This document shows positions 2,262-21,293 of a stretch of 64,000 nt of DNA, one piece after another; position 1 is the stretch's first letter; every line of letters starts with the position of its first letter. The DNA is from Candidatus Omnitrophota bacterium. Its GTDB lineage: Bacteria > Omnitrophota > Gorgyraeia > B26-G9. The notes under the pieces are model-generated. The model worked only from the letters and a program-made list of their open reading frames with translations. It did not search any database and was not told the origin of the DNA. The stretch covers positions 16,607 to 80,606 of the forward strand of contig JBDRPX010000028.1 of NCBI GenBank assembly GCA_043826565.1. The letters run 5' to 3'. The translations under genes and the position numbers were made by a program.

Positions 2262-5200
2262 ATGATAAGAAAATTAATTTCTACAATAATAGGCATAATC
2301 TTAATGTTCGGGGTAAGCAGTTCTGCTTTAGCCGGACTTTCGGAGACGATTCTGCTTACTGTAACTGTCACTGATAATGACCCGCCTCCGTTTGTGGAAA
2401 TACTTTCTCCAATAGAAGGACAGGCCTATTCCGGAAGTTTTGAGATCCGGGGTACAGCTACAGATGATAATTTTGACTATGCTCAGCAGTATCATGGCCG
2501 GGGCGCAGTGCCTACAGAGTGGCTTTTGGATGATACCTATGATGATCCGTTTGAAAACTTTGTCGTTGCGAATGCTGATATAAGTGAAACAATAAACGGT
2601 GTTTACTCTATAAAATTTTGGGCAATAGATACTGCCGGACATGAAGCAGAAGATATTGTGATTTTTTCAATTGAAAATCCCCTTGTCTTACATACTCCGG
2701 CATCTTCTGAAGAAATGATTTCACCAAATGCCGATGGAAACAAAGATACAGTTGTCTTTTCCGCATATACTAATGATCCCAGAGTCAATTGGGATATTTC
2801 TATAAAAAATGATAGCAATGTGGAAATAAGGCATATCAGCGGAAGCGGAGCAGTTATTAGGGAAATTCCTGATCCTGGTGATCCGGGTGATACGAATGAA
2901 GCGGCAGTTATCGAACAGGTTTGGGATGGAAAAAATAATTCCGGAGTTGTTGTGTTGGATGGAAATTACACCTTTGAAATAATGGCTAATTATAATGGCC
3001 AGACTGTTGGGCCGGTTGGCGGTCAGGTTGAAGTTGATACAGCTCCACCGATAGCGCAGATTATCTCTCCGCAGGATTATGATGTTATCTCCGGAACCAT
3101 TGAAATGATCGGAACAGCAACTGATGCAAATTTTGAAATATGTGAAGTATATCATGGGTTAGGGGATGCCCCCGCGGAATGGGAGTTATTAAATGAATCA
3201 TACACAATTCCCCAGATCAATGCTGTTTTATTGTCAGCAAATATAATGGAAACAGTTAATGGCCTGCATTCTTTGCGGATTGTGGTTAAAGATAAAGCGG
3301 GCAATGAATCCATAGATACTCTTATAGTGGAATTTCAGAATGAGTTTAGATTATCGGATGGTGATGTTTCGGAGGATTTATTTTCTCCTAACACGGATGG
3401 GAACAAAGATACAGTTACAATTTCCGCGCGAACTAATGAAGAAACAGCCGCATGGACAATTATTATAAAAGATTCTATTGGCGCGGAAGTTAAACAATTT
3501 TCCGGACAAGGTGCTCAGATAGAACAGATTTGGGATGGTAAGGATGATTTCGGAGTTGTTGTGCCGGATGGAGTTTATACTTATGAGATCAGGGCTGCTT
3601 ATAATAGCCAGACTTTGGGTCCGTTAACCGGAACAGTAGAAATAGATACAGTTTATCCTGCGGCGGTGATTAGTTATCCGCAGAATGATGATGTAGTGAC
3701 CGAAGGCCCGAGGGTTGATGTGATTGGAACAGCCACAGATGATAATTTTGTGAGGTGTACTGTTTATTCAGGGTATGGGAGTAATCCTGATGAATGGGGG
3801 TATCGAGATACTTATAATGAACAAAAATCAGCAGAAATTTTGGCTGTTTTCGGAGTGTATTCACCTTTAATTAATACTACTTATGGAGCAAAAATAAGTG
3901 TTTTAGATAGAGCCGGCAATGAATCTGTGGCAACAGTGGTTTTTGATGTAAATTTAGGTTTTTATATTACTAATCAAAATGCTTCTTCGGCATTTATTTC
4001 TCCGAATGCTGACGGAGCTAATGATACCACAACGATTACAGCGGATGTTGTGGGATATATTTATTCTAGTACCTGGTTAATTTCTATTAGAGATTCGATA
4101 AATCAGGAAGTAAAACAGTTTAGCGGTTCAGGAAATATTAATCAAATATGGGATGGTAAGGATGCGCAGGGACAAGTGGTTCCTGATGGAGAGTATACTT
4201 ACGTGATAACCGCTACTTTTGGAGAGCAGACTACAGATCCTGTACAGGGAACTATTACTAAAGACACAGGGACTCCTATTGCTTTGATTACTTCCCCGCA
4301 GGAAAATGAAATTATTGATGATGGGCATACTGACCTTATCGGTACAGTGGGTGATGAAAATTTAGCCCAATATTCAGTTTATTACGGTCAGGGAAATTCC
4401 CCAGCAGAGTGGCATTTAATAGGGGCAGAGACTCATCATAGACTGAATGATGAGCTGGTGGTTAATGGCTGGTATACACAAGGATTGGGAAATGGCGCAT
4501 ATACTGTGCGGCTATTAGTAGAAGATAAAGCGGGAAATAAAGCTATAGATGATGTTTTAGTTGAAGTTAATAACGGGTTTTATATAGAGAATTACAATGC
4601 AAATCCTGAAAATATCTCGCCTAATAATGATGGATTTAAGGATAGCACAGTAATTAATGCGACAGTTGTTGGATATGAAACTAACTGGACGATTGCTATT
4701 AAAGATATAGAGAACAATATTATCCGTCAAATAAATGGTTTTGGTTTTAGCATTAACTTTGTTTGGGATGGGAATAATGAATCAGGGGAGACGGTTCCTG
4801 ACGGTATTTATACGATAGAAATTACGGCTGCATATAATACTATTACTACCGATCCTGTGGGTAGTCAGATTCAGGTAGATGTTTCTCCGCCAATAGCTAT
4901 TATTGCATCTCCGCAGGAAAATGCTGTTGTTTCCGGTTATGTAGAGATTTCCGGAACAGCTGCTGATGAAAGTTTTAAACAATATTCTGTTTTTTATGGT
5001 GAAGGGGCTGCTCCTGCAGAATGGAGTCAATTGGCAGTGAATAGTTATATTAAAGTTGATGAGGTATTAGCGTACTGGGATACTCGAGATTTAAATAACG
5101 GCACATATTGCCTGAAATTAGTTGTGGAGGATAATCATAATCTTGAGACCGAACAGATTATTCAGGTTGAAGTTGATAATGGATTTTCTATAATCAACTT

Positions 5201-8200
5201 TTGGATGGATCCGGATTATATTTCACCGAACGGAGATAATTTTAGAGATACAACTTCATTTCATGCGCAAATAATCGGGTATGCTGCGGATTGGGCAATT
5301 AGTATTAAAAATTCTGAGAATATGGAAGTTAGACGGCTTAGTGGACAAGGCTATTCAGTGAATGTTTCCTGGGATGGTAAAAATGAGTCAGGCATAGTAG
5401 TCCCGGATGGTGATTATACCTGGGAGCTTACTGCTGTATATAATACTCATACAGCAGATCCGATAAACGGGACCATAAAAATTGATGCTGCTTTTCCGAT
5501 AGCAGAAATAATTTCGCCTTTGCAAGATGAAGCAATTTCCGGAGAGGTTGATATTATGGGAACTGCTAATGATGCGAATTTTCATAGTTTTTCTCTTCAT
5601 TATGGCAAAGGAACAGATCCTCAGACTTGGGTATCTCTTTGTACGTCGCAGGATCCTGTGACTAATGGCATGTTGAATACATGGAATACTAATAATCTTG
5701 TAAATGGCATTTATACCTTGAGACTTGGAGTATGGGATGAGATAGGAAATAGTGTTTTTGATTTTGTACCGGTATTTTTGGCGAATGACCTTATTTTTGA
5801 AGATGTTAATATTACCCGTGATAGGATTTCTCCAAATGATGATGGTTTGAATGACAATACAATAATCACCGCTTGGACTAATGAAGCGGAAGCAGTCTGG
5901 ACGATTTCCATAAAAGATTCTACAGAGACAGTAGTGCGTGAGTTTACTGGTCAGGGATCTGATATAGAACAGGTATGGGATGGAAAGAACGAAGGGGGTG
6001 TTGTAGTAGACGGGGAATATAGCTGCGAGATAAGTGCAGAGTATAACAGCCAGACTGTTAGCGTGATTGCGGGAACTGTTATTGTGGATATTACTCCGCC
6101 GACAGCAATAATAACCTCGCCTGTTGAGAATGATAATGTTGCCGGGATTGTTACAATAACCGGGCAAGCTAATGATATTCATCTAAGTTCAAGAACACTT
6201 TATTACGGGCAAGGAGCTGGTCCAACAGAATGGATACAGCTATCTAATGTGGATTGGAATGAAGATGGTTTTAGCGCAACATGGGATACTTCTGGTCTGA
6301 CTAATGGGGTTTGTGTGTTACGTTTGGTAGTTAATGACAATTTTTCTCAGCAGACTATTAATTATGTTTCAGTTAATGTGCAAAATCCGTTAGTGTTGAT
6401 TTCTCCGAGTGTTGATTTTGAATATATAACTCCTAATGGTGATGGTATTCAAGATAATGTGACAATTACCGCTGTGGTAAATGAGCCACAAGCTAACTGG
6501 ACGATTTCCATAAAAGATTCTACAGAGACAGTAGTGCGTGAGTTTACTGGTCAGGGATCTGATATAGAACAGGTATGGGATGGAAAAGATGAGTTTGGTG
6601 TAGTTGTTCCGGACGGTGAATATACATATGAAGTAACTGCCGAATATGATACCCAGACAGCTGGGCCGGTTAGCGGGACAGTTATTGTGGATAATACTCT
6701 ACCTATAGCTGAAATAATATCTCCGCAGGAAAATGGAACGATTATGTGGTTTATGTCTATTATCGGAACAGCTAAAGATGATAATATCGCGGATTATTCT
6801 ATAAGTTATGGAAGAGGGGATGCTCCGGATACCTGGAGTACTTCTAGCCTTACCTTAAAGAGTCCAAGAAATATTTCCCGGGAAAATATTGAATTAGCTA
6901 CATGGAATACATCGGATAATTTTAATGATAGATATACGATAAAGCTTTCCGTTATTGATTTAGCCGGAAATACATCTACGGCTGAGGTTAGAGTAGATTT
7001 AGCTACCGGATTATGGATTCAAGATGCAGCGAGTAGTTTGAATTATATGTCTCCGAATGGAGATGGCGTTAAAGACACAGCAGCTATTAGCGGACGTCTA
7101 AATGAAGAATTCGCAAATTGGAAAGTTGAAATAAAGACTTCCTGGGGGGCGGTGATTCGCCAGTTTAGCGGACTGGGGTATAATATATCACAAGTTTGGG
7201 ATGGTAAAGACGAAACCGGAACTGTGGTAGATGACGGTGCGTATATATGGGAAATCAACGCAGAATATAATGGGCAAACCGCTTCTCCGGAAAGCGGTTG
7301 GATTACAGTTGATCTTAATCTGCCAACTGTTTCCATAACGACTCCTGGGGAAAATGATATTGTAAGCGGAAGTGTGAAAATAATTGGCACAGCAACAGAT
7401 GCGAATTTTTACTATTATAAATTTTCTTATGGAGTAGGTGCTGATCCTGTTGCTTGGAACAACTCTAATAATATAAGTACTCCTGTAGAAGATGGTGTTT
7501 TGGCTACTTGGTCTACTGGTAATCTAATCAATGGTATATATTCCTTAAGAATCATGGCCTGGGATCGCTTATTGCAGGTATCTTCAGATACGATTTTGGT
7601 TACCGTGGCTAATGAACTAACTTTACAGAATAGTTCTGTTTCTTTAGATGTAATATCTCCAAATGAAGATGGACAAAATGATAGTACAATAATAACAGCT
7701 TGGACAAATGAAGAATTAGCTACCTGGGCTATTTCCATAAAGAATTCCACAGATGGAGTAGCGCGTGAGTTTACCGGTCAGGGGTCTGATATAGAGCAGG
7801 CCTGGGACGGTAAAAATGAAACGGAAACAGTGGTTGCTGACGGTGAATACACTTATGAGGTTAGTGTTGAATATAATAGTCAGACAGTTGGCCCGATAGG
7901 CGGTACGATTATTGTAGATTCAACTGCACCTATTGCTTTAATTAGTTTACCTGGAGAAAATGATATTGTTAGCGGGAATGTGGATATTATTGGTATTGCT
8001 GCTGATCCTAATATGCATAAATATTATATTCATTATGGAAAAGGAACTGCGCCGACTGAGTGGACAAACATTAAAGAGAGTACGCAAACAGTAGATAACG
8101 CAGTTTTATTTACCTGGGATACGTTGAATAGAACTAATGGAATATATACATTAAGACTTCTGGTTCGTGATATTGTTAATAATGAATCTATGGATACTGT

Positions 8201-9758
8201 AAGTATTATTTTGAATAATGAACTGATATTAGATAATCTTACCATTTCCTTGGAGGTAATTTCTCCGAACGCAGATGGAAATAATGATAGCACAACAATT
8301 ACAGCTTGGACAAATGAAGAGTTAGCTAACTGGACGATTTCCATAAAAGATTCAGCAAGTACAATTGTACGTCAGTTTACCGGCCAGGGTTCTGATATAG
8401 AGCAAGTCTGGGATGGTAAAAATGAAACGGAAACAGTGGTTGCTGACGGAGAGTATACTTATGAGGTTAGTGCTGAATATAATAGTCAGACAGCGGGCCC
8501 GATAGGCGGTACGATTATTGTAGATTCAACTGTTCCGATTGCTGTGATTAGCTCTCCTGGGGAAAATGAAACTGTTTGGGGGGATATTTCTGTAATTGGA
8601 ACTGCTAATGATGCGAATTTGTTGTGGTACAGAGTATATTATGGAGAGGGGGAAAATCCCCAGACATGGTATCAGCTTATAAGTTCAAGTAACAGTGTTG
8701 TAAGCGGCCAATTGACAAGTTGGGATACTCTAACATTCCCCAACGGTATTTATACTTTAAAGTTACTTGTAAGAGATACTGTAAGTAATATATCGGAATA
8801 CTATACTAAGGTTAATCTGGAAAATATGGAAATTAAGAATGTGTCTGCTTCCCAGCAGTTTATTAATCCTGCGCATTCAGAGATTAGCACAATAGACTTT
8901 ATTTTGGATCGGGATGCGCAAGTAGCAGTAAAGATGTATCACGTATACATTAGATTTAATTCACTTGAAGGTACATATACGAGGAGTTATGTGGATACTG
9001 TAGCAACAGTTTTTGGTCAAGCCGGGGGTAACAGCTGTGTTTGGGACGGCCGGGATTCCGGAGGGGACCTGATGTCTTATGGAGCTTATGTTTATGAATT
9101 GGAAGCACTTGCTCCTGATGGGCGAAATGGGTTTTACGGCCCTGATTATGTGCGTGGTTTTGTGGATGTGACTAATATGACGGTAAATGCTAATGCGAAT
9201 CCGTATTATTGTGAGCGTTATAAAATCGATTATGATATTTCCCAGCCGGCTTTTGTAGTGATTGCTTTTAAAAATTTAGTAGGAGCTGTTTTGTGGGGAG
9301 AGCCAAGGTCAGCGGGAGGTCATTATGAATACTGGGATGGACGTAATCCTTTTACCGGTAAGATAGTGAATAATCAAACGACAACGCTAAGCGGGTTTGC
9401 CTGGACTTTGCCGGATAATTGTATTGTTGTTTATGATGACACATTGGAAATAACTGAATTATCCAGTGGAAGCTTTTTGATTCAACCGGGGTATAGCCAG
9501 GTTAGTAGTATAGGATATGCGATTAATGAAGATGCGGAAATTACAATTAAGTTATCTGATCCTAATGGTAATTATTGTAAAACACTTATAGATAATTCAC
9601 TTGTCAGCGCCGGGGCTTATCAAGTAGAATGGGATGGAATGAATGATGATGGAGAGCTTGTCTCAATAGAAGGGGATTATATCATTGAAGTTACCGCGTC
9701 TACTCCCGGAGGAGAAACTACGGTTATTAGAAGAGGCAATATAAAAGTCTATAAATGA
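2262..9758 (+). CDS. Giant modular cell-surface adhesin (2498 aa) built of tandem Ig-like plus FlgD-Ig-like modules
   Basis: Signal peptide. About 12 tandem ~200-aa modules. Each pairs a 'PIAxIxSPxxNxxVxGxVxIxGTAxDxNF..YYGxG..PxEW..WDTxxLxNGxYTLRL' domain with a FlgD-Ig-like 'ISPNxDGxNDxxxI..W(T/A)IxIKDS..FxGQGxxIEQVWDGKxExGxVVxDGEYTYE' domain. The C-terminal ~400 aa hold two more FlgD-Ig-like 'WDGRD/WDGMNDDGELV' units. Confidence 0.85.
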   Translation: MIRKLISTIIGIILMFGVSSSALAGLSETILLTVTVTDNDPPPFVEILSPIEGQAYSGSFEIRGTATDDNFDYAQQYHGRGAVPTEWLLDDTYDDPFENFVVANADISETINGVYSIKFWAIDTAGHEAEDIVIFSIENPLVLHTPASSEEMISPNADGNKDTVVFSAYTNDPRVNWDISIKNDSNVEIRHISGSGAVIREIPDPGDPGDTNEAAVIEQVWDGKNNSGVVVLDGNYTFEIMANYNGQTVGPVGGQVEVDTAPPIAQIISPQDYDVISGTIEMIGTATDANFEICEVYHGLGDAPAEWELLNESYTIPQINAVLLSANIMETVNGLHSLRIVVKDKAGNESIDTLIVEFQNEFRLSDGDVSEDLFSPNTDGNKDTVTISARTNEETAAWTIIIKDSIGAEVKQFSGQGAQIEQIWDGKDDFGVVVPDGVYTYEIRAAYNSQTLGPLTGTVEIDTVYPAAVISYPQNDDVVTEGPRVDVIGTATDDNFVRCTVYSGYGSNPDEWGYRDTYNEQKSAEILAVFGVYSPLINTTYGAKISVLDRAGNESVATVVFDVNLGFYITNQNASSAFISPNADGANDTTTITADVVGYIYSSTWLISIRDSINQEVKQFSGSGNINQIWDGKDAQGQVVPDGEYTYVITATFGEQTTDPVQGTITKDTGTPIALITSPQENEIIDDGHTDLIGTVGDENLAQYSVYYGQGNSPAEWHLIGAETHHRLNDELVVNGWYTQGLGNGAYTVRLLVEDKAGNKAIDDVLVEVNNGFYIENYNANPENISPNNDGFKDSTVINATVVGYETNWTIAIKDIENNIIRQINGFGFSINFVWDGNNESGETVPDGIYTIEITAAYNTITTDPVGSQIQVDVSPPIAIIASPQENAVVSGYVEISGTAADESFKQYSVFYGEGAAPAEWSQLAVNSYIKVDEVLAYWDTRDLNNGTYCLKLVVEDNHNLETEQIIQVEVDNGFSIINFWMDPDYISPNGDNFRDTTSFHAQIIGYAADWAISIKNSENMEVRRLSGQGYSVNVSWDGKNESGIVVPDGDYTWELTAVYNTHTADPINGTIKIDAAFPIAEIISPLQDEAISGEVDIMGTANDANFHSFSLHYGKGTDPQTWVSLCTSQDPVTNGMLNTWNTNNLVNGIYTLRLGVWDEIGNSVFDFVPVFLANDLIFEDVNITRDRISPNDDGLNDNTIITAWTNEAEAVWTISIKDSTETVVREFTGQGSDIEQVWDGKNEGGVVVDGEYSCEISAEYNSQTVSVIAGTVIVDITPPTAIITSPVENDNVAGIVTITGQANDIHLSSRTLYYGQGAGPTEWIQLSNVDWNEDGFSATWDTSGLTNGVCVLRLVVNDNFSQQTINYVSVNVQNPLVLISPSVDFEYITPNGDGIQDNVTITAVVNEPQANWTISIKDSTETVVREFTGQGSDIEQVWDGKDEFGVVVPDGEYTYEVTAEYDTQTAGPVSGTVIVDNTLPIAEIISPQENGTIMWFMSIIGTAKDDNIADYSISYGRGDAPDTWSTSSLTLKSPRNISRENIELATWNTSDNFNDRYTIKLSVIDLAGNTSTAEVRVDLATGLWIQDAASSLNYMSPNGDGVKDTAAISGRLNEEFANWKVEIKTSWGAVIRQFSGLGYNISQVWDGKDETGTVVDDGAYIWEINAEYNGQTASPESGWITVDLNLPTVSITTPGENDIVSGSVKIIGTATDANFYYYKFSYGVGADPVAWNNSNNISTPVEDGVLATWSTGNLINGIYSLRIMAWDRLLQVSSDTILVTVANELTLQNSSVSLDVISPNEDGQNDSTIITAWTNEELATWAISIKNSTDGVAREFTGQGSDIEQAWDGKNETETVVADGEYTYEVSVEYNSQTVGPIGGTIIVDSTAPIALISLPGENDIVSGNVDIIGIAADPNMHKYYIHYGKGTAPTEWTNIKESTQTVDNAVLFTWDTLNRTNGIYTLRLLVRDIVNNESMDTVSIILNNELILDNLTISLEVISPNADGNNDSTTITAWTNEELANWTISIKDSASTIVRQFTGQGSDIEQVWDGKNETETVVADGEYTYEVSAEYNSQTAGPIGGTIIVDSTVPIAVISSPGENETVWGDISVIGTANDANLLWYRVYYGEGENPQTWYQLISSSNSVVSGQLTSWDTLTFPNGIYTLKLLVRDTVSNISEYYTKVNLENMEIKNVSASQQFINPAHSEISTIDFILDRDAQVAVKMYHVYIRFNSLEGTYTRSYVDTVATVFGQAGGNSCVWDGRDSGGDLMSYGAYVYELEALAPDGRNGFYGPDYVRGFVDVTNMTVNANANPYYCERYKIDYDISQPAFVVIAFKNLVGAVLWGEPRSAGGHYEYWDGRNPFTGKIVNNQTTTLSGFAWTLPDNCIVVYDDTLEITELSSGSFLIQPGYSQVSSIGYAINEDAEITIKLSDPNGNYCKTLIDNSLVSAGAYQVEWDGMNDDGELVSIEGDYIIEVTASTPGGETTVIRRGNIKVYK
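5897..5986 (+). repeat. Intragenic 90-bp exact direct repeat, copy 1; copy 2 lies exactly 600 bp downstream
   Basis: The 90 nt 'ctggacgatttccataaaagattctacagagacagtagtgcgtgagtttactggtcagggatctgatatagaacaggtatgggatggaaa' is identical at 5897-5986 and 6497-6586. Confidence 0.8.
6497..6586 (+). repeat. Intragenic 90-bp exact direct repeat, copy 2
   Basis: Identical to 5897-5986. A second near-identical pair of about 115 bp lies at about 7810-7925 and about 8413-8528, offset 603 bp. Confidence 0.8.
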
Positions 9759-10624
9759 GAAAATATATTATATCTTTAATGTTATTAATATTTATATGCT
9801 TAACGGCAGTTTTTTGTCAGGGACAGGGAATGATTAAAGGCAAAATTGCTTATTCGGGGTTTACCGACGGATATTGGCAGATTTGGGTTATGGATTGCGC
9901 GGCAAAGTCTGCAGTTCAGCTGACCTCATCAAAGGTTGATAAAAAGACCCCGGTTTGGTCTCCGGAAGGAAAGAGAATTATTTATCGTACCAGCAACGGT
10001 GAATTTTTTCTGATTGATGTCGAAAGTAAAGAAGAAAAAAGAATATTTTCTAAGTTGGGATATCTGGTTGATCCATCATGGATTAGCTTAGAACGGATTC
10101 TTTTCGCGCGCTATCGTAGTGACTTAAAAGATGACAGTGATATTTGGAGCGCTGATCTTAATGGAGCCGGCGTAAAAGTAATAAATGAGGATTTGGGATT
10201 GCAGTACTTTCCGGCGATTTCTCCGGATGGGGAAAAAATAGTATATGTTTCCGGGAAAAAAGCGCATGAACATGATATTTGGGTTATGAATAAAAACGGG
10301 CAGGATAAAGTTCTGCTTGTTCAAAAATACGGCTATGACATTTGTCCGCGCTGGTCTCCTGACGGAAAGAGTATTGTGTTTGTTTCCGACCGTACGGGAA
10401 GCTATGAGATTTGGATAATGAATGCGGACGGAAGTAATCAAACGCAGTTTACCCGTACCAAAGGGTATAATAATAATCCGGCTTGGTCTCCTGACGGAGA
10501 AAGAATAGTATTTGTATCCAATGCCGGCGGGGATTTGCAGTTATGGGTAATGGATAAAGATGGCAATAATGCGGTACAGATAACAAGAGGCGCGGAATGC
10601 GTAGATCCGGCGTGGTGTTTGTAG
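9755..10624 (+). CDS. TolB-like periplasmic beta-propeller protein (PD40/WD40-like repeats)
   Basis: Signal peptide. Repeated 'P.WSPDG..I.FVS' PD40 motifs (PVWSPEGKRIIY, PAISPDGEKIVYVS, PRWSPDGKSIVFVSDRTG, PAWSPDGERIVFVS). ATGA overlap with the adhesin stop. Confidence 0.75.
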   Translation: MRKYIISLMLLIFICLTAVFCQGQGMIKGKIAYSGFTDGYWQIWVMDCAAKSAVQLTSSKVDKKTPVWSPEGKRIIYRTSNGEFFLIDVESKEEKRIFSKLGYLVDPSWISLERILFARYRSDLKDDSDIWSADLNGAGVKVINEDLGLQYFPAISPDGEKIVYVSGKKAHEHDIWVMNKNGQDKVLLVQKYGYDICPRWSPDGKSIVFVSDRTGSYEIWIMNADGSNQTQFTRTKGYNNNPAWSPDGERIVFVSNAGGDLQLWVMDKDGNNAVQITRGAECVDPAWCL

Positions 10625-10663
10625 GGACAATCTGGAAGAGGTGAGAGTATTAACACAAATAAT

Positions 10664-11788
10664 ATGCGTAGAATAATTTTTTTACCATTAATAGTAATGA
10701 TTGTAAGCGGCTGTGCCGCAAGACAGATGACTGTAAAAGAAGACCTTTATCCTGAACAAAGGTTTACGATATCTAATGTCTCGGCCAAGCCAAAGACTAT
10801 TAACAATACAAAAAGTCAGCGAGTAAAAATAGAATATTCGCTTTCGCAAGACGCGGAGGTTTCTGTTGATATATATGACAGTGATGACCGGTGGATAAAC
10901 TCAATTAAAAAAGACGTGACGGAAAAAGCCGGTAAAAATTTAGTAAAATGGGATGGTAAAGATAGTAATGAAGAACTTGTGCCTAGCGGCGCGTATATTT
11001 ATGTGATCAAAGCCAAGGATAATGCTGGTAAAAAAACAAAGTACGATCCTGCGGACATTAGTAAAGGCATCGGATTAAGTGAGCGGGAACTTATCTATAA
11101 TAAGGAAAAGAATAAAGTGCGATATATTCTTCCCCGGGCGGCAAGGGTTCTGATTCGCGCGGGTATTAAAGAAGGCCCGCTTCTAAAAACATTGGCAGAT
11201 TGGGAGCCGCGGGAAGCGGGTAAAAATTCCGAGGGTTGGGATGGCCAGGACAATGCCGGGAATTTAATAACTCAACATCCTGATTTTACTTTGTTTCTTT
11301 CCGCGTATTCTTTGCCGGATAACAGTATTATTGTAAAAAACAATAATAAAGGATTTGAATATGAATGTGCTTTTGAATTAAAAACAGAGCAGCCCCGGAG
11401 AGTCCCGCGGAATGTTACCGGAATAATCTTGCATCCTAGTGCAAAGCAAAGCTGCCGAAAAACCCGAGTGCCGCGTTTTAGTATTGAATTCCCAGAAGCA
11501 GACCATGATGAAAAAAGTGTTCCGGTTATTGCTGGTCCTACGACAATTAGGCTTAGTTGTGATGAACAGGATAAGCATCTGCTGGTTGAATCCCGTTTTG
11601 AAATCATTTGCTATATTGATAATATATTTTATTTTGAAGAGGAACAGGGTTTTACACCGTTTAATTACCGCTGGGATCCTCAGGGAATGACAGCTGGAGA
11701 ACATATTGTAACGTTTAATCTGCAAAGTTATACCGGAGCTGTGGGTACTAAAAGTTTAAAGGTTAGAATAAAAGGAAGAAAACAATAA
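10664..11788 (+). CDS. Lipoprotein with FlgD-Ig-like domains
   Basis: Lipobox IVMIVSGC|A. 'VKWDGKDSNEELVPSGAYIYVIKA' and 'EGWDGQDNAGNL' motifs matching the FlgD-Ig-like units of the adhesin. Confidence 0.7.
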   Translation: MRRIIFLPLIVMIVSGCAARQMTVKEDLYPEQRFTISNVSAKPKTINNTKSQRVKIEYSLSQDAEVSVDIYDSDDRWINSIKKDVTEKAGKNLVKWDGKDSNEELVPSGAYIYVIKAKDNAGKKTKYDPADISKGIGLSERELIYNKEKNKVRYILPRAARVLIRAGIKEGPLLKTLADWEPREAGKNSEGWDGQDNAGNLITQHPDFTLFLSAYSLPDNSIIVKNNNKGFEYECAFELKTEQPRRVPRNVTGIILHPSAKQSCRKTRVPRFSIEFPEADHDEKSVPVIAGPTTIRLSCDEQDKHLLVESRFEIICYIDNIFYFEEEQGFTPFNYRWDPQGMTAGEHIVTFNLQSYTGAVGTKSLKVRIKGRKQ

Positions 11789-14700
11789 TGAGAATTTACG
11801 CGAAAAAATTTAAAATACTATCCTTATTTATTATTATATGTTTTTTGTTTAATACTACAGTGGCTCCCTACGCGTATGCTTCACATTTAGGAGCTTGGGA
11901 TGATCATATCGGAATTCCCGGGCCGGATGTTCCTCCGCCCTATAATCCGGATAATCCGGATAATCCGGATGCGCCGCCATGCAATCCTTCGCCGCCGCCG
12001 CCGCCGGACATGTGTCCAAATCCGGAATCTCCGCCGGATCCCGGAGATGAGGATAAGAGCGAATGTACCGGAGGAGAACCGGTGTCTTTATATGACGGCA
12101 GTTTTTATTACCGGCATACCGACCTGGAAATTCCGGGAAGGATGTCTCTTTCTCTAAAAAGAGCCTATGATACCCGAAGTACCTATAACGGAGTTTTCGG
12201 ATACGGCTGGTCATTTAACTTTCATACGCGTTTATTTAAGGTATCTGACGGCACATTACTGCTTAAGCGCGGAGATAATACCGAAGATACATTTACCTAT
12301 GACAATGTAACAGGTAATCATCTTAGCCCTTTGGGTAAATACGAAACAATCATTTCTAATTCAGATGGTACCTATGTTTTAAAAAGTAAATATGGGTCAA
12401 AGTATCATTTTGATATTAATGGAGTCCTGGTAAAGATGGAAAATACAAAGGGCAACCAGATATTCTTAAGTTATGACCCGGCAGGCAAACTGCCGATTAG
12501 CGGCATATCTCCCTATTCAAACATAACCAATTCGATTGTGATCGGATATGACTACCGCTTGATAAAGATAGAAGAAGCGCAGAATGATATTCCCAGCGGA
12601 AGGTTTATAGAATTTTTCTATAATAATGACGGACGAATTATAAAGGCTAAAGATTTTACGGACAGAGAAGTTATCTATACCTATGATCCCAGCGGGAACG
12701 GAGATCTGCTGTCTGTGCAGGATCCGGAAGGTAATCTTTATGAATATGTCTATGATGAACACCGGATTGCTGTATTTTCCGATACAGCCAGCTGCAGCGG
12801 ATGCGGGGGATTGGGCGGCGGAGTGCATATAAACACCTATGATGACCAAAAGCGGATAAGCCGGCAGGTACATGGGAATAATATTGTGGATATAGAATAC
12901 ATTGTTCCTTATGAAAAAACCAAAGTAACTACGAGTATCTATAATGACGAAACCGAAGAATTTTTGCATACCCGGTATGAATATTTTGAATTTGATGAAG
13001 ATGGCTATACAATTAAACAAACCCGGCAGATGGGTGATTTTCTTGATGAAGACGGCGGCACAGAAAACGATGATATTATAAAAGAGATGGTTTATAATAA
13101 CGCGAAGAAAGTCGAGTCAAAGACCTATGCGCAAGGGAATGCTGTAGATTATACCTATGATGATAAGGGCAATATCCTGACCAAGACAGTGACATTAGAA
13201 GACGGAACTATTGTAACTACGCGGTATACTTATGAACCTAATAACAGTAAAGCAATGTCCAAAGAGATTACTTCTACGGATACTTCACAAACATACCGCA
13301 AGGAATATACGCGTTATGCTGACGGCAGTATCCACGAAGAAAAGACAATATTAGATGATACAACTACTTATACAACAACCTACACTTATACAGCTCAGGG
13401 AGATATTGATACTATAATTGATCCCAGAGGCAATACAATTAAACATGAGTATAATGGATATGGTTATCTTACCCGTGTCTATGACCCGAATAATCCAAGT
13501 CATCAGACATTATATGGTTATAATGATGTGGGCAATCGCGTATCCATGACTGATGCAAATAATAATACTTCAACTTTTACTTATGATAAACTCAACCGGA
13601 TTACAAAGATCACGACGCCTAAAAATGAAGAAACAATATATACCTGGGAAGGCACAAACTTAATCCAGATTGAAACCGGAAAATTAGGGGCGCAGGAAGG
13701 CCGGATTACGCAAATAGAATATGATGATTTAAACCGGAAAACCGCGATAAAACAGAAAAACGACAGTGCTGTTTTTGTAACTATGGCGGCTTATACTTAT
13801 GACTCCGAAGGTAAAGTTTTAACCACTACCGACGCATTAGGACATACTACGGCAAATAGTTATGATGTGATGGGGAGGCTGATACAGGTTACAAGCCCCC
13901 TGTCGCAGGCCACAAGTTATGAATATGATAAAAATAGTAATCTTATCGCTGTAATTGATGCCAATAACAATACTACAGAATATGAATATGACAAAACCAG
14001 CCGGCTTAGTAAAGTAATTCAATATGAAGGTACTGCTCCCATAGAGACAAGCTATATTTATGATTTTCAGGGGAACATTAAAACTATTACTGACGCGGAA
14101 ACTCACACAACTACTAATATCTATGATAATCTGGGCAGGCTGATACAAGTCACAAGTCCCATGTCACAAGTCACAAGTTATGAATATGATGCTAACGGAA
14201 ATCTAACTAAGAAAACAGACGCGAAAAATCAGGTTATTGAATATGAATATAATGCCTATAATCAGCTAACGCATGTTTATTATGGGGGGAAAACATCACC
14301 AATAAAGACAGTAGCTTTTACTTATGATGATGTGGGCAACATGGAAACCTGGAGCGATGGGGCTTATTCAGCAACGTATATATATGATGAATTAAATAGA
14401 GTCCTTAATGTTGCTACACAATATCCATTGGGCACAAAGACTGTATCGTATACATATGACCGGTTCGGGAACAAAGCTACACTGATATATCCGGATGCGC
14501 TGGGTGCGGTGACGTATAGTTATGATGCGTTTAATAGGTTAGTGCAGGTCACAGGTCCCATGTCGCAAGTCACAGGTTATGAATACGACAACTCTGGGCG
14601 GCTTCTAAGTAAGACTTTGCCCAATGGAGTTTATACGGATTATGGGTATGATGATGCAAATAGGCTGACGAGCTTGGTGAATAAGAAAAGTGACGCGAGT

Positions 14701-16008
14701 GTGATTAGTTCATTTAGTTATACGCATGATGGGGTGGGTAACAGAGTACAGACTATAGACCATAGACCATCGACCATGGACTATACCTATGATGATGTGT
14801 ATAGGTTAAAGCAGGTGGATGAGGATACGGTAACCACAGAGACGTATAGTTATGATAATGTAGGGAATCGGGAGACAAGTGTAGCACATAGTGATTGGAT
14901 GTATGATTCGGAAAATAAATTGCAATCTTACAACGGAATAACGTATAATTATGATAACAACGGAAATCTTATTTCAAAAGACGATAATGGTTCTTTGACT
15001 ACGTATAGTTGGGATTATGAGAATAGGTTAACAGGTGTTATTAATGCATCGAATATCAGCTATAGTTATGATCCTTTTGGGAAGCGAATAAGTAAGACTG
15101 TTGATGGAGTAACAAAGTACTATTTATATGATTCAGAAGATATCATTGTTGAGTATGATGCTGGAGGTGTTGTGGTAGCGCATTATGTGCATGGACAGGG
15201 AATAGATGAGCCGATTTCGATGACTCGAAATTCCAATACTTACTATTACACTATGGATGGATTAGGGTCAGTAAGAGGTTTGACGGATAATATAGAAGCA
15301 GTAGTTGAAAGTTATGAATATGATTCTTTTGGCAATCTTAAATCACAGCCGGCAACTGGGAATCCTTATACATACACATCAAGAGAATATGATGCAGAAA
15401 CGGAGCTTTATTTTTACCGGGCACGGTATTATGATAGTAGTGTAGGGAGGTTTATCAGCGCGGATATTATTGGATTTTTTGGGGGTATTAATTTTTATAC
15501 ATATGTAGAAAACAATCCGATATTAAGATTGGATGTATTTGGTTTAGCATGGACAACGATTGACTTTATATATCATTTTTATCGGGGTGGGGGGACAACT
15601 GTTGATATATCTACTGTAGGATTGCTAGAAAGATATAAAATGGATTCTTCCGTTGGGGTAGTGCGTAGTTTTTCGGAAATGGAAGTCAAAATTAAAACTA
15701 GAAGTTTTTATCAAACACTAAATGGAGGTGAGTCTGGAGACTTTAAAGTTTCTGGGGCAGGCCTAGTATATGTTACTACGATTTATGTATTGGCGGGGGG
15801 GTATTTAAATTATAATGGGAACTGCGTGGCAGTTAAAGACAAAAATTGTGAATGTGTGACAACTGTTTGTGAAATGTCATATAATTTTAGAGATACTTTT
15901 ACAGATCCCTTAGATACTGGGAAAGATTATGGCGGGACTAAATATGATATTATTGGTTCTTGGAAGGATACCTATTCTTATAAATACTGTCCGAGGGGTG
16001 AGAAATGA
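11788..16008 (+). CDS. RHS/YD-repeat polymorphic toxin with an uncharacterised C-terminal toxin domain
   Basis: Signal peptide, then a Pro-rich stretch (PDNPDNPDAPPCNPSPPPPPD). Dozens of YD repeats (YxYDxxGNR/L..). RHS core end 'YYDSSVGRFISADIIGFFGGINFYTYVENNPILRLDVFGL' (a DPxGL-type variant). A ~150-aa C-terminal tail (nt ~15550-16005) with no recognisable motif. Start overlaps the preceding stop (TAATGA). Confidence 0.9.
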   Translation: MRIYAKKFKILSLFIIICFLFNTTVAPYAYASHLGAWDDHIGIPGPDVPPPYNPDNPDNPDAPPCNPSPPPPPDMCPNPESPPDPGDEDKSECTGGEPVSLYDGSFYYRHTDLEIPGRMSLSLKRAYDTRSTYNGVFGYGWSFNFHTRLFKVSDGTLLLKRGDNTEDTFTYDNVTGNHLSPLGKYETIISNSDGTYVLKSKYGSKYHFDINGVLVKMENTKGNQIFLSYDPAGKLPISGISPYSNITNSIVIGYDYRLIKIEEAQNDIPSGRFIEFFYNNDGRIIKAKDFTDREVIYTYDPSGNGDLLSVQDPEGNLYEYVYDEHRIAVFSDTASCSGCGGLGGGVHINTYDDQKRISRQVHGNNIVDIEYIVPYEKTKVTTSIYNDETEEFLHTRYEYFEFDEDGYTIKQTRQMGDFLDEDGGTENDDIIKEMVYNNAKKVESKTYAQGNAVDYTYDDKGNILTKTVTLEDGTIVTTRYTYEPNNSKAMSKEITSTDTSQTYRKEYTRYADGSIHEEKTILDDTTTYTTTYTYTAQGDIDTIIDPRGNTIKHEYNGYGYLTRVYDPNNPSHQTLYGYNDVGNRVSMTDANNNTSTFTYDKLNRITKITTPKNEETIYTWEGTNLIQIETGKLGAQEGRITQIEYDDLNRKTAIKQKNDSAVFVTMAAYTYDSEGKVLTTTDALGHTTANSYDVMGRLIQVTSPLSQATSYEYDKNSNLIAVIDANNNTTEYEYDKTSRLSKVIQYEGTAPIETSYIYDFQGNIKTITDAETHTTTNIYDNLGRLIQVTSPMSQVTSYEYDANGNLTKKTDAKNQVIEYEYNAYNQLTHVYYGGKTSPIKTVAFTYDDVGNMETWSDGAYSATYIYDELNRVLNVATQYPLGTKTVSYTYDRFGNKATLIYPDALGAVTYSYDAFNRLVQVTGPMSQVTGYEYDNSGRLLSKTLPNGVYTDYGYDDANRLTSLVNKKSDASVISSFSYTHDGVGNRVQTIDHRPSTMDYTYDDVYRLKQVDEDTVTTETYSYDNVGNRETSVAHSDWMYDSENKLQSYNGITYNYDNNGNLISKDDNGSLTTYSWDYENRLTGVINASNISYSYDPFGKRISKTVDGVTKYYLYDSEDIIVEYDAGGVVVAHYVHGQGIDEPISMTRNSNTYYYTMDGLGSVRGLTDNIEAVVESYEYDSFGNLKSQPATGNPYTYTSREYDAETELYFYRARYYDSSVGRFISADIIGFFGGINFYTYVENNPILRLDVFGLAWTTIDFIYHFYRGGGTTVDISTVGLLERYKMDSSVGVVRSFSEMEVKIKTRSFYQTLNGGESGDFKVSGAGLVYVTTIYVLAGGYLNYNGNCVAVKDKNCECVTTVCEMSYNFRDTFTDPLDTGKDYGGTKYDIIGSWKDTYSYKYCPRGEK

Positions 16009-16415
16009 TTAAAAAATTTTTTATTGAATTTTTGTATTTTATTTTTGGCTCAATAATTACTTCAACATTATTTGTTATTATGCATAATTATTTTGCTAAT
16101 TATAATAATATGCCATTTTTCATAATTCTGATATTTCGAATAATAGATATATTTATTATCGGTTTTCCTGCTTTTGTGATCGCATTCCTGTGTTATATAT
16201 TAAGGAAACAAAAAGACTTTATCGATTCAAGTTGGTTCTTGGTGGGGTGTTTGTGGGCAGCGGTTTTAATAACAATAAAAAATATGCCTAACTTTTCTGA
16301 AAGATCGTTGTATCTATACGGCAAATTAATGGTATATTTTTTGCCAATGGTATTCAGCTATTTGATTGTTTTCCTTTTAAATCTTATTAGAATTAAGATT
16401 TTGGAGAAAAATTAA
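16005..16415 (+). CDS. Small polytopic membrane protein; cognate immunity candidate for the RHS toxin
   Basis: ATGA overlap with the RHS stop. 136 aa with about 4 hydrophobic helices. Position typical of rhs immunity genes. Confidence 0.5.
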   Translation: MIKKFFIEFLYFIFGSIITSTLFVIMHNYFANYNNMPFFIILIFRIIDIFIIGFPAFVIAFLCYILRKQKDFIDSSWFLVGCLWAAVLITIKNMPNFSERSLYLYGKLMVYFLPMVFSYLIVFLLNLIRIKILEKN

Positions 16416-16466
16416 TGTCAGCTCTCCACCTTCCACTATAGGGTTATAATAAGGGGGCAGGGGATA

Positions 16467-16694
16467 ATGGTAAAAATTATTTTAGCTATAATATTAGTTT
16501 TATTTGGAATAATGATTATAATTAGGCATAATAAAGTTGCAAAAGTTTTAGAAGATTTCTATAAAAAATATCCTTTTATAAGGTACGCGTCTGATAAACA
16601 GTTTAAAATGCGTCCAATTTTTATTATAAGTGTAGGCGTTACGATTATATTTATCGGGATTATTGCGTTTGTGGACATTGTGAACTACCTATGA
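16467..16694 (+). CDS. Small membrane protein (2 TM), possible second immunity or orphan
   Basis: RBS AGGGGGCAGGGG upstream. 75 aa, two hydrophobic helices. Confidence 0.4.
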   Translation: MVKIILAIILVLFGIMIIIRHNKVAKVLEDFYKKYPFIRYASDKQFKMRPIFIISVGVTIIFIGIIAFVDIVNYL

Positions 16695-16716
16695 TTAATG
16701 GAATGTGAAATAGTAG

Positions 16717-17121
16717 ATGAAACTCTTAAAAACAATCCCAATTTTACTTATATTTTTTTGCCTTGCCAGTCAGTTAGCTTTTGCCCAGCCTGCTGAAGTT
16801 GTATTTGAACAATATAAGGAAGCGGTTGAGCAGGGGAATGATGGGTTATATGGATCTTTTGCAACACAGGCTTCTGTGCAAAAAGGATATCATAAACTTA
16901 GCGCTGGTCAACGAAAAGCGGTTTTATCCTGTATCAAAGATAATAGCTATGCGGTTGAGAATAGAACTGATAATGAAGCTATTATTACTTTTTCCGATAG
17001 CCGGAATGGAAAAGCTAATCCGTATATTTTTACCAAAGAAAACGGCGAGTGGAAAATAGATTTTGTGGAGATGAGTAAGCGGATTGTTTTTGATAAAAAT
17101 GATAAATGGAGATGGCGTTAA
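16717..17121 (+). CDS. Small secreted hypothetical protein
   Basis: Signal peptide MKLLKTIPILLIFFCLASQLAFA. 134 aa. Confidence 0.5.
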   Translation: MKLLKTIPILLIFFCLASQLAFAQPAEVVFEQYKEAVEQGNDGLYGSFATQASVQKGYHKLSAGQRKAVLSCIKDNSYAVENRTDNEAIITFSDSRNGKANPYIFTKENGEWKIDFVEMSKRIVFDKNDKWRWR

Positions 17122-18714: not shown

Positions 18715-19737
18715 ATGAGATATAGAAATATAATAACATTGTTTCTAGTAATTGGAATTATTCTAACATCAGCTTTATTGGTAAAAGCAGAAAAACAAAA
18801 AGAAGTTGTTTTATATACAGCTTTAGACCAGATTTTTTCTGAGCCGATAATTAAAGATTTTGAAAAACAAACCGGGATTAAAGTAAAAGTTGTCTATGAT
18901 ACAGAGGCAGCGAAAACCACCGGCCTGGTAAACCGTTTAATTGCCGAAAAAAACAATCCCAATGCGGATGTCTTCTGGAACAATGAAATTGCCCGAAGCA
19001 TTATCTTAAAGGACAAGGGGATATTAGGTGCTTATTTTTCAACTTCGGCAAAAGATATTCCGCCGCAGTTTAAGGATGCCGGAGGGTATTGGACCGGATT
19101 CGCGGCGCGCGCGCGGGTTTTAATCTATAATAAGAATATGCTTTCGGAAAGCAATATCCCGCAATCTATTTTTGATTTAACTAAAACGCAATGGAAAGGC
19201 CGTTTTGCTATGGCTAATCCATTATTCGGAACCACGGCTACGCATTGCGCGGCTTTATTTGTGAAACTGGGGGATGAAAAAGCCAAAGAATTTTTTACTT
19301 CTTTAAAAGAGAACGGAGTGGTCATGGTGCCGGGTAATTCCACTTCCCGGGACCGGGTAGTGGATGGTGAATTACCAGTTGGATTTACTGATACAGATGA
19401 TTCCTGGGTGGCGATGAGTGAAGGACAGCCGGTAGATATGGTGTACCCTGATGCTGATGGCTTGGGAACATTATTAATTCCCAATACAGTTTGCCTGATC
19501 AAAAATTGCCCGCATCCGGAAGAAGCAAAGCAATTGATTGATTTTATTTTAAGTAAAGAAGTAGAAGAAAAACTCGCTTATTCAGAAAGTATGCAGATAC
19601 CTTTGCGTAAAGACGTAAAAAAACCAAAACATGTACCGGATTATGATACACTTAAAGTTATGGAAGTTGATTTTGAAGCAGTAGCGCATAAACTGCCGGA
19701 ATCCGGTGAGTATTTAACCGAATTATTTTTACAGTGA
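18715..19737 (+). CDS. ABC transporter periplasmic substrate-binding protein, Fe(III)/thiamine-type family (FbpA/AfuA-like)
   Basis: RBS AAAGGAGGGGAGAGC then ATG. Signal peptide. Family resemblance to FbpA/AfuA (motifs VVLYTAL, VFWNNE, WTGFAARARVLIYNK). Confidence 0.75.
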   Translation: MRYRNIITLFLVIGIILTSALLVKAEKQKEVVLYTALDQIFSEPIIKDFEKQTGIKVKVVYDTEAAKTTGLVNRLIAEKNNPNADVFWNNEIARSIILKDKGILGAYFSTSAKDIPPQFKDAGGYWTGFAARARVLIYNKNMLSESNIPQSIFDLTKTQWKGRFAMANPLFGTTATHCAALFVKLGDEKAKEFFTSLKENGVVMVPGNSTSRDRVVDGELPVGFTDTDDSWVAMSEGQPVDMVYPDADGLGTLLIPNTVCLIKNCPHPEEAKQLIDFILSKEVEEKLAYSESMQIPLRKDVKKPKHVPDYDTLKVMEVDFEAVAHKLPESGEYLTELFLQ

Positions 19738-21293
19738 GCATATTGCCAAAAACCGTTATTGCTATTTGTCTGAGTGTATTCTGCGTTATTGTGATCGCGC
19801 CGTTGCTGCTGTTATTATTTAATGCAATTACTTCTGTGCCTTTATCGAGTTTTCTGCTTGAGGCTAGACAGCTGAACCTGTTAAAAAACAGCCTTGTTAT
19901 CGGGATCGGAACAGCGTTATTCGCGTTAATACTTGGTATTCCGTACGCTTTTTTCCTGACGAGAACAAGTATATTATTTAAACAGGGTTTTCTTTTAGCG
20001 GGTTTAATTCCGCTTTTTTTGCCCGCGCAGATAACTACAATCGGCTGGCTGAAATTAATGGGTACGCAGGGTTTGGATTTAGGATTTAAGTTATACGGTT
20101 TAGGGGGAATAGTCTTTATCCTGGGATTATCCTACTTTCCTTTTGTAGTACTGCTTACGCTTACCGGATTAAATTCCATGGATCCTAAACTGGAGCAGGC
20201 CGGAGAACTGACTTGTTCGCGAGCTAAGGTATTTACCCGGATTACTTTGCCGTTACTTTTACCTTATATATTTTCCGGAGCGATATTTGTGTTTATTTTT
20301 TCTATCGCGAACTACGGAGTGCCGGATCTTTTGAGAGTAAATACCTATCCGGTAGAAATATTTGTGCAGTTCAGTGCTTTCTATAATACGCAAAAAGCTG
20401 TAATTCTGGCTATACCATTAATATTAATTACCCTGGGATTGATATTACTGCAAAGGCATTTAATGGCGGAGAGATCATATGTTACTCTGCGCTGTCAAAA
20501 GGGGATCCCGCATTATATTGATTCCGCGAAAATTAAATGGCTGGGAATTGTATTTTGCAGTTTTGTTTTTATTTTATCTGTAGTTGTGCCCATGCTTATG
20601 CTGATTATCGGTGCCGGGCCAATAGCTACTTATGCAGCAGCTTTTAAAACTGCACAGCAGCAGATTTTTAACAGCTTATTTTTTGCGGTAATTGCCGCGA
20701 CTTTTATTTGTATAATATGTTTTCCGTTAGCCTATGTAATCCAGCGTGCGTCAAAACGATTTTCTTTGTTTGTTGATATTGTTTCTATGCTGCCGTTTGC
20801 GATTCCGTCGGCGATTTTTGGTATTGCTCTAATTAAGTTCTGGAATCATCCACAAACCAATTTTATTTACCAGACATTTTTGATTGTTGTTTTTGGCTAT
20901 ACTGTACGGTTTAGTGCTTTTGCTATTAGAACCATGAGTGCGAGTATAAGCCAGATACATAGAAACCTTGAAGAATCCGCCGGGCTTGTGCCGATATCGT
21001 GGTTTAAAAGATTTTGGAAGATTTTATTTCCTTTATCCGGTACCGGAATATTAGCCAGCTGGGTTTTATGTTTTTCTCTGGCTATGGGAGAGTTAGGTAC
21101 AACGCTTTTGGTTATTCCTGCCGGAGAAGCAACTATGCCCATACGGATATACACATTAATGCATTACGGCGCGCATAAACTGGTTTGCGGATTATGTGTG
21201 CTTTTAGTAATGATTATCTTGTTGCCGGGTATTATTTTGTTTATAATGCATAATTGGCGGCAGAGGAGAAAAAAGGCAAAGGTTCTATGTTAA
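19734..21293 (+). CDS. ABC transporter permease, fused two-domain FbpB-type
   Basis: 519 aa with two sets of about 6 TM helices. GTGA overlap with the upstream stop. Adjacent to the binding protein and ATPase. Confidence 0.8.
   Translation: MSILPKTVIAICLSVFCVIVIAPLLLLLFNAITSVPLSSFLLEARQLNLLKNSLVIGIGTALFALILGIPYAFFLTRTSILFKQGFLLAGLIPLFLPAQITTIGWLKLMGTQGLDLGFKLYGLGGIVFILGLSYFPFVVLLTLTGLNSMDPKLEQAGELTCSRAKVFTRITLPLLLPYIFSGAIFVFIFSIANYGVPDLLRVNTYPVEIFVQFSAFYNTQKAVILAIPLILITLGLILLQRHLMAERSYVTLRCQKGIPHYIDSAKIKWLGIVFCSFVFILSVVVPMLMLIIGAGPIATYAAAFKTAQQQIFNSLFFAVIAATFICIICFPLAYVIQRASKRFSLFVDIVSMLPFAIPSAIFGIALIKFWNHPQTNFIYQTFLIVVFGYTVRFSAFAIRTMSASISQIHRNLEESAGLVPISWFKRFWKILFPLSGTGILASWVLCFSLAMGELGTTLLVIPAGEATMPIRIYTLMHYGAHKLVCGLCVLLVMIILLPGIILFIMHNWRQRRKKAKVLC

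Follow-up and report, generated by a model that had tools for sequence, protein, structure and literature searches.

Bacteriocins of the colicin M (ColM) type, including colicin M, pectocins M1 and M2, PaeM, syringacin M and the burkhocins, are modular toxins with a C-terminal catalytic domain of about 150 amino acids (Pfam PF14859), and their substrate is lipid II, a lipid-anchored precursor exposed on the periplasmic side of the inner membrane. Within the ColM signature, DxYDx5HR, residue D226 is essential and coordinates a divalent cation, and the role of Y228 has been described in the same work (PMC8469651). The signature can be degenerate, since a burkhocin with DxFKx5R is known (PMC5821083). 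PmnH, a natural ColM-domain hybrid, has an altered motif, and that domain is thought to be inactive.

The proteins that confer immunity to these bacteriocins are varied and unrelated to one another but share an association with the inner membrane, and polytopic examples are PmiA, BmiA and PmiC (PMC5821083, PMC5277000). PmiA has about 137 amino acids and four transmembrane helices, is encoded downstream of its toxin on the same strand, is hardly conserved in sequence and seldom carries an annotation (PMC5277000). Beyond bacteriocins, T6SS effectors with DUF3289 resemble ColM (PMC11148199, PMC12135965), and a "Novel toxin domain unified with the Colicin M fold" has been described by Burroughs and Aravind in 2025 (PMC12419801) as an uncharacterised polymorphic-toxin tip with membrane or lipoprotein immunity. 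Lipid II is also attacked outside the cytoplasm by the phosphatase TelC, an LXG toxin of the T7SS.

Architecture of the RHS locus

The stretch of DNA analysed (the window) comprises 64,000 nucleotides from a Candidatus Omnitrophota bacterium, and all features described here lie on its forward strand. The RHS polymorphic toxin gene (11788..16008) encodes 1406 amino acids, and its product matches exactly NCBI MFH2138363.1 from a Candidatus Omnitrophota MAG. The protein opens with a predicted Sec signal peptide (residues 1-31, 11788..11880; MRIYAKKFKILSLFIIICFLFNTTVAPYAYA followed by S), recognised by eye from a basic n-region, a hydrophobic core and an AxA-like site, with predicted cleavage between AYA and S after residue 31. 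A Pro-rich linker (residues 40-95, 11905..12072; 37.5% Pro) leads to DUF6531 (residues 96-169, 12073..12294; Pfam PF20148, E 2.3e-17), the usual N-terminal element of RHS shells. The YD/RHS-repeat shell (12295..15318) consists of 12 RHS_repeat and 9 YD_repeat_2x stretches (PF05593 RHS_repeat, E 6.5e-75; TIGR01643, E 3.5e-53) and is followed by the RHS-associated core (residues 1178-1253, 15319..15546; TIGR03696 Rhs_assc_core, E 1.2e-20), which ends ...GRFISADIIG...NNPILRLDVFGL. The core-end motif PILRLDVFGL is a variant of PxxxxDPxGL in which both Asp residues are retained, and by analogy with other RHS proteins the core end is the presumed autoproteolytic site. As the core ends at residue 1253, the tail comprises residues 1254-1406 (153 amino acids, 15547..16005). 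An earlier note had described the same protein, with signal peptide, Pro-rich linker, YD shell and core end, and had placed the start of the tail near 15550; the domain matches and the computed coordinate bear this out.

The repeat shell, the core with its motif and a variable C-terminal tip followed by a small downstream gene are the features of RHS polymorphic toxins. The T6SS-delivered RHS class is defined by PAAR, VgrG or Hcp domains or T6SS genes that are fused or adjacent. The RHS protein has a predicted Sec-type signal peptide in their stead; neither PAAR nor VgrG was found in it with Pfam or NCBIfam, and no T6SS domain was found in the ORFs scanned between 92 and 26932, a set that excludes the ORF at 19734-21293.

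Three genes with Pfam matches precede the RHS gene: a secreted protein of 2498 amino acids with FlgD_ig/CHU_C/Big modules (2262-9758), a PD40 beta-propeller protein (9755-10624) and a FlgD_ig lipoprotein (10664-11788). Stop and start codons overlap at 9755/9758 and at 11786-11790, where the RHS start overlaps the preceding stop as TAATG. The three genes (2262..11788) are probably co-transcribed with the RHS gene and, as we infer, may provide the setting in which its product is displayed at the surface or delivered.

The C-terminal tail and its relation to colicin M

The 153 residues of the tail include 18 Gly, 16 Thr, 14 Tyr, 14 Val and five Cys, and gave no match in Pfam, NCBIfam or PADLOC and none to PDB sequences, in keeping with the initial impression that no toxin motif is recognisable. 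An exhaustive HMMER search of 1.84 billion proteins recovered homologues in 94 cluster representatives (E<=1e-3); counted in clusters at 50% identity, the family numbers at least 94. The domain ends a few residues from the C-terminus in nearly all of them and is preceded by the RHS core (TIGR03696) in 57 of the 94, while carriers among the others include Phage_Mu_F (MuF), eCIS_core, PG_binding_1 and Peptidase_C39. Hosts traced through MAG and genome labels are Omnitrophota, Planctomycetota (Anaerohalosphaeraceae, Pirellulaceae), Emcibacter, Mariprofundus and candidate division FCPU426. Neither PF14859 nor any other Pfam or NCBIfam model matched the domain regions in 95 scanned sequences. Homology searches and domain order show the tail to belong to a widespread unannotated domain family, used by several carriers as their putative toxin tip at the C-terminus.

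Profile and structure comparisons each point to ColM. When the tail family was aligned with seven authentic PF14859 domains, hhalign gave a probability of 89.2% and an E-value of 2.2e-6 over 122 columns, against probabilities of at most 0.7% for controls made by reversing the profiles or by shuffling their columns (20 shuffles). Taken separately, each half of the tail profile, N-terminal or C-terminal, still matched ColM, with their order kept. In an hmmsearch of PDB sequences, a 43-member family profile had its best match in pectocin M1 (E 0.008, two collinear motifs). A Foldseek search with an AlphaFold-type model of the tail had been proposed in the earlier note; the AF2 model, built from a family-only alignment without templates, is mostly beta (pLDDT 94.8, pTM 0.86), and its single PDB match at E<=1e-3 was pectocin M2 (E 2.8e-4, probability 1.00). 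No curated model captures this relationship: neither the NCBIfam model for lipid II-degrading bacteriocins nor PF14859 matches the tail, not even at E<=10. The tail nevertheless has the marks of the ColM superfamily, namely the catalytic-domain fold (in a predicted model) and profile-level homology across the domain, and the two comparisons show its family to be a distant ColM catalytic-domain homologue. The proposal of a new toxin family thus stands in that no curated database names it, whereas its kinship with ColM places it within a known superfamily.

Conservation along the domain follows ColM in part. The N-terminal signature DFIYHFYRGGGTTVDISTVGLL (15562..15627) is the counterpart of ColM "ALAHYLWGNGAERSVNIANIGLK" in family alignments, with His1263 (tail H10) aligned to a His that is invariant across ColM domains. 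The C-terminal signature GGTKYDI (15931..15951; family consensus GGTPYxI) corresponds to SGKEYQI in ColM and GTPYEI in pectocin M1. Between them lies a putative active-site motif, D-T-F-T-D-P (residues 1369-1374, 15892..15909), identified from family conservation and hhalign; across 91 domains, tail D116 is conserved in 98%, F118 in 96%, D120 in 82% and P121 in 95%. D116 aligns with ColM D226 and F118 with Y228. The family thus has D-x-F-x-D-P in place of DxYDx5HR and keeps only the Asp and the aromatic residue. Mutations at five positions are known to abolish the activity of ColM, and three of these, D229, H235 and R236, lie in a gap of the alignment and have no counterpart in the tail. Given this absence and the PmnH precedent, it is not assured that the tail hydrolyses lipid II.

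Cysteines are conserved in the tail family at C93, about C101 and C108. The earlier idea of a small disulfide-stabilised fold gives way to a different picture, as these residues look like a cross-strand disulfide inside a ColM-like beta sheet. A pore-forming colicin-type toxin was also considered and fits poorly: the tail has no hydrophobic segment (maximum KD19 1.34, GRAVY -0.32), and its mostly-beta model lacks a hydrophobic hairpin in a helical bundle.

Candidate immunity genes and proposed function

Three ORFs follow the RHS gene on the same strand, of the sizes and types originally described. The first, orf136 (16005..16415), encodes 136 amino acids with four hydrophobic peaks, predicted to be transmembrane helices (GRAVY 1.07), at a GC content of 25.3% compared with 39.1% for the window. 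Its ATG at 16005 overlaps the RHS TGA (16006-16008) as ATGA, with a GAGGGG Shine-Dalgarno-like stretch upstream, and alone among the downstream ORFs it is predicted to be translationally coupled to the RHS gene. The product matched no curated library and yielded no relatives in searches short of an exhaustive HMM search, and the gene-position collection searched records no gene for the exact product. Its length, predicted membrane topology and place in the locus are those of PmiA-type proteins, and orf136 is the best candidate immunity protein, in agreement with the RHS toxin-immunity layout first proposed.

The second, orf75 (16467..16694), encodes 75 amino acids with two hydrophobic peaks, consistent with two transmembrane helices, has a GC content of 26.3% and its own GGGGA Shine-Dalgarno-like site, and gave only sub-threshold matches to family libraries. 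The third, orf134 (16717..17121), encodes a predicted secreted protein of 134 amino acids with one hydrophobic peak at the N-terminus and had no PDB or plasmid match. The gaps before orf75 and orf134 are 51 and 22 nucleotides, and position is the sole tie of these two genes to the toxin-immunity system.

Partner genes in related loci vary. In six of about ten loci the partner is one of a set of mutually homologous periplasmic proteins of 120-180 amino acids, anchored by a transmembrane segment or lipobox; in an Emcibacter locus the immediate partner of the homologous toxin is a polytopic membrane protein, locus L001 has a lipoprotein and then a polytopic protein, and loci L013 and L016 have homologous toxin genes and no evident partner gene. 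This split between anchored periplasmic and polytopic partners, the latter in at least one other locus, parallels the split known for ColM, and a linked inner-membrane immunity protein is likewise a ColM trait. A search for the tail on other carriers, each paired with a homologue of the membrane protein, had been proposed in the earlier note; the tail family does recur on RHS, MuF and eCIS carriers, and no orf136 homologue was found.

Taken together, the locus is probably an RHS toxin-immunity module in which the tail is a toxin acting in the periplasm against lipid II or a similar lipid carrier and orf136 is a PmiA-like immunity protein; attack on such a substrate in the periplasm is the likeliest activity of the tail because of its ColM homology and the ColM-like membrane and periplasmic partners in related loci. 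The RHS core would cleave off the tip, which, once it had reached a neighbouring cell or prey, would work in the periplasm on the outer side of the cytoplasmic membrane. In that compartment it would hydrolyse or otherwise inactivate lipid II or a related undecaprenyl-pyrophosphate-linked precursor, so that wall synthesis would halt and the cell would lyse. The conserved cross-strand cysteine pair would fit folding in an oxidising compartment, and orf136 would shield the producing cell while the toxin is exported, much as PmiA and BmiA protect producers of ColM-type bacteriocins. A membrane-embedded immunity protein had been taken as a hint of a membrane target; this is compatible with the location of lipid II, yet ColM-type toxins with polytopic immunity are already documented.

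With lower though appreciable probability, the ColM fold may serve another chemistry or target: a different polyprenyl-phosphate-linked precursor (of O-antigen, capsule, teichoic acid or archaeal pseudomurein/glycan carriers), binding or sequestration of lipid II only, or non-catalytic membrane damage. The missing His-Arg part of the ColM motif, with D-x-F-x-D-P and conserved cysteines instead, would suit such a change, and pectocin M1 without catalytic activity can still cause lysis when it is in the periplasm (PMC5821083). Some Omnitrophota prey on archaea and bacteria, and the target envelope may therefore be non-standard. However, the cation-binding Asp and adjacent aromatic residue are almost invariant, which argues that metal-dependent phosphoester chemistry is retained, and membrane and periplasmic partners fit the site of action of ColM.

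It is unlikely that immunity lies elsewhere than in orf136, or is shared by it, with orf134 or orf75 neutralising the toxin or two of the proteins acting jointly. The anchored periplasmic partners in related loci resemble orf134 in size, a lipoprotein and a polytopic protein occur in succession at L001, and orf75 and orf134 both lie a short distance downstream. Against this, orf134 did not fall in the periplasmic immunity family of related loci (ImmP) by hmmsearch or hhalign, the coupling to the toxin gene is confined to orf136, and the toxin in Emcibacter lies directly beside a polytopic protein.

Quite improbable is a reading in which the D-x-F-x-D-P family forms a functionally distinct ColM branch, differing in catalysis or lipid-carrier substrate, and the tail is a Sec-exported prey-lysing effector, not an anti-kin weapon, presented or delivered by a co-transcribed surface apparatus (the giant Ig-repeat protein, PD40 propeller and lipoprotein) in an ultra-small, possibly predatory member of the Omnitrophota. 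If true, it would represent an RHS delivery route independent of the T6SS. That the tail is instead a toxin unrelated to known families, possibly membrane-inserting or pore-forming, and its ColM likeness coincidental is very hard to credit: no curated model matches it, fold-match scores are moderate and pore-forming colicins typically have polytopic immunity proteins (PMC5821083), but sequence-profile and structure searches independently rank ColM-family proteins first, the 122-column hhalign match has clean shuffled controls, and the hydrophilic, mostly-beta tail has no hydrophobic helical hairpin.

The proposed relationship suggests a function that can be tested for a family of toxin tips named in no curated database, and takes the ColM superfamily beyond Proteobacteria, onto RHS, MuF and eCIS carriers. 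The variant signature without the His-Arg pair can reveal which residues the cleavage of lipid II, a reaction whose mechanism is not yet settled, really requires, and the two unannotated candidate immunity types, anchored periplasmic and polytopic membrane, repeat the puzzling variety of ColM partners. Enzymes that degrade lipid II attract interest as protein antibiotics, and for the biology of Omnitrophota the locus suggests a cell-wall-directed weapon.

Comparison with described systems

TelC and the tail are both polymorphic-toxin tips, and TelC likewise has a membrane-anchored immunity protein; its fold belongs to the Lipocone superfamily, unlike that of the tail, and no search found similarity between them. 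The domain of Burroughs and Aravind, compared here by description only (PMC12419801), occurs on lipobox/Cystatin-like carriers, and no Cystatin carrier was found among the 94 tail homologues. DUF3289 (Pfam PF11692) effectors, such as T6EC1/DUF943 and BtpeA-BtpiA (PDB 9jdi), share the ColM fold, a likeness that came to light through structure, as it had not through sequence. [quoted passage not shown] Unlike these systems, neither the tail nor the 43 scanned family members matched PF11692, orf136 had no DUF943 match, and the scanned ORFs provide no T6SS context.

ColM-type bacteriocins differ from the tail in their detection by PF14859 and in their full signature, and the conserved cysteines set the tail family apart from them. 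They carry the domain on a TonB-box/receptor-binding bacteriocin and occur in Proteobacteria, whereas the tail is borne by an RHS shell with a predicted Sec signal in a candidate phylum of the PVC group. The likenesses span the module. Both domains have about the same length and a C-terminal position, the same fold and secondary-structure order (for the tail, in the AF2 model) and collinear signatures, HY-x-G-x-G...V-x-(I/L)...(V/I)GL, then D-x-(Y/F), then G-x-x-Y-x-I. Like PmiA and BmiA, orf136 lies directly downstream, has four hydrophobic helices and lacks detectable relatives; the first helix of PmiA is possibly a cleavable signal sequence, and no sequence relationship between orf136 and PmiA is demonstrable; PmiAs are unrelated in sequence even to one another, and there is no family model for them. 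A precedent for a ColM domain on a polymorphic carrier is found in protein P0125, in which an RHS core end is followed by PF14859.

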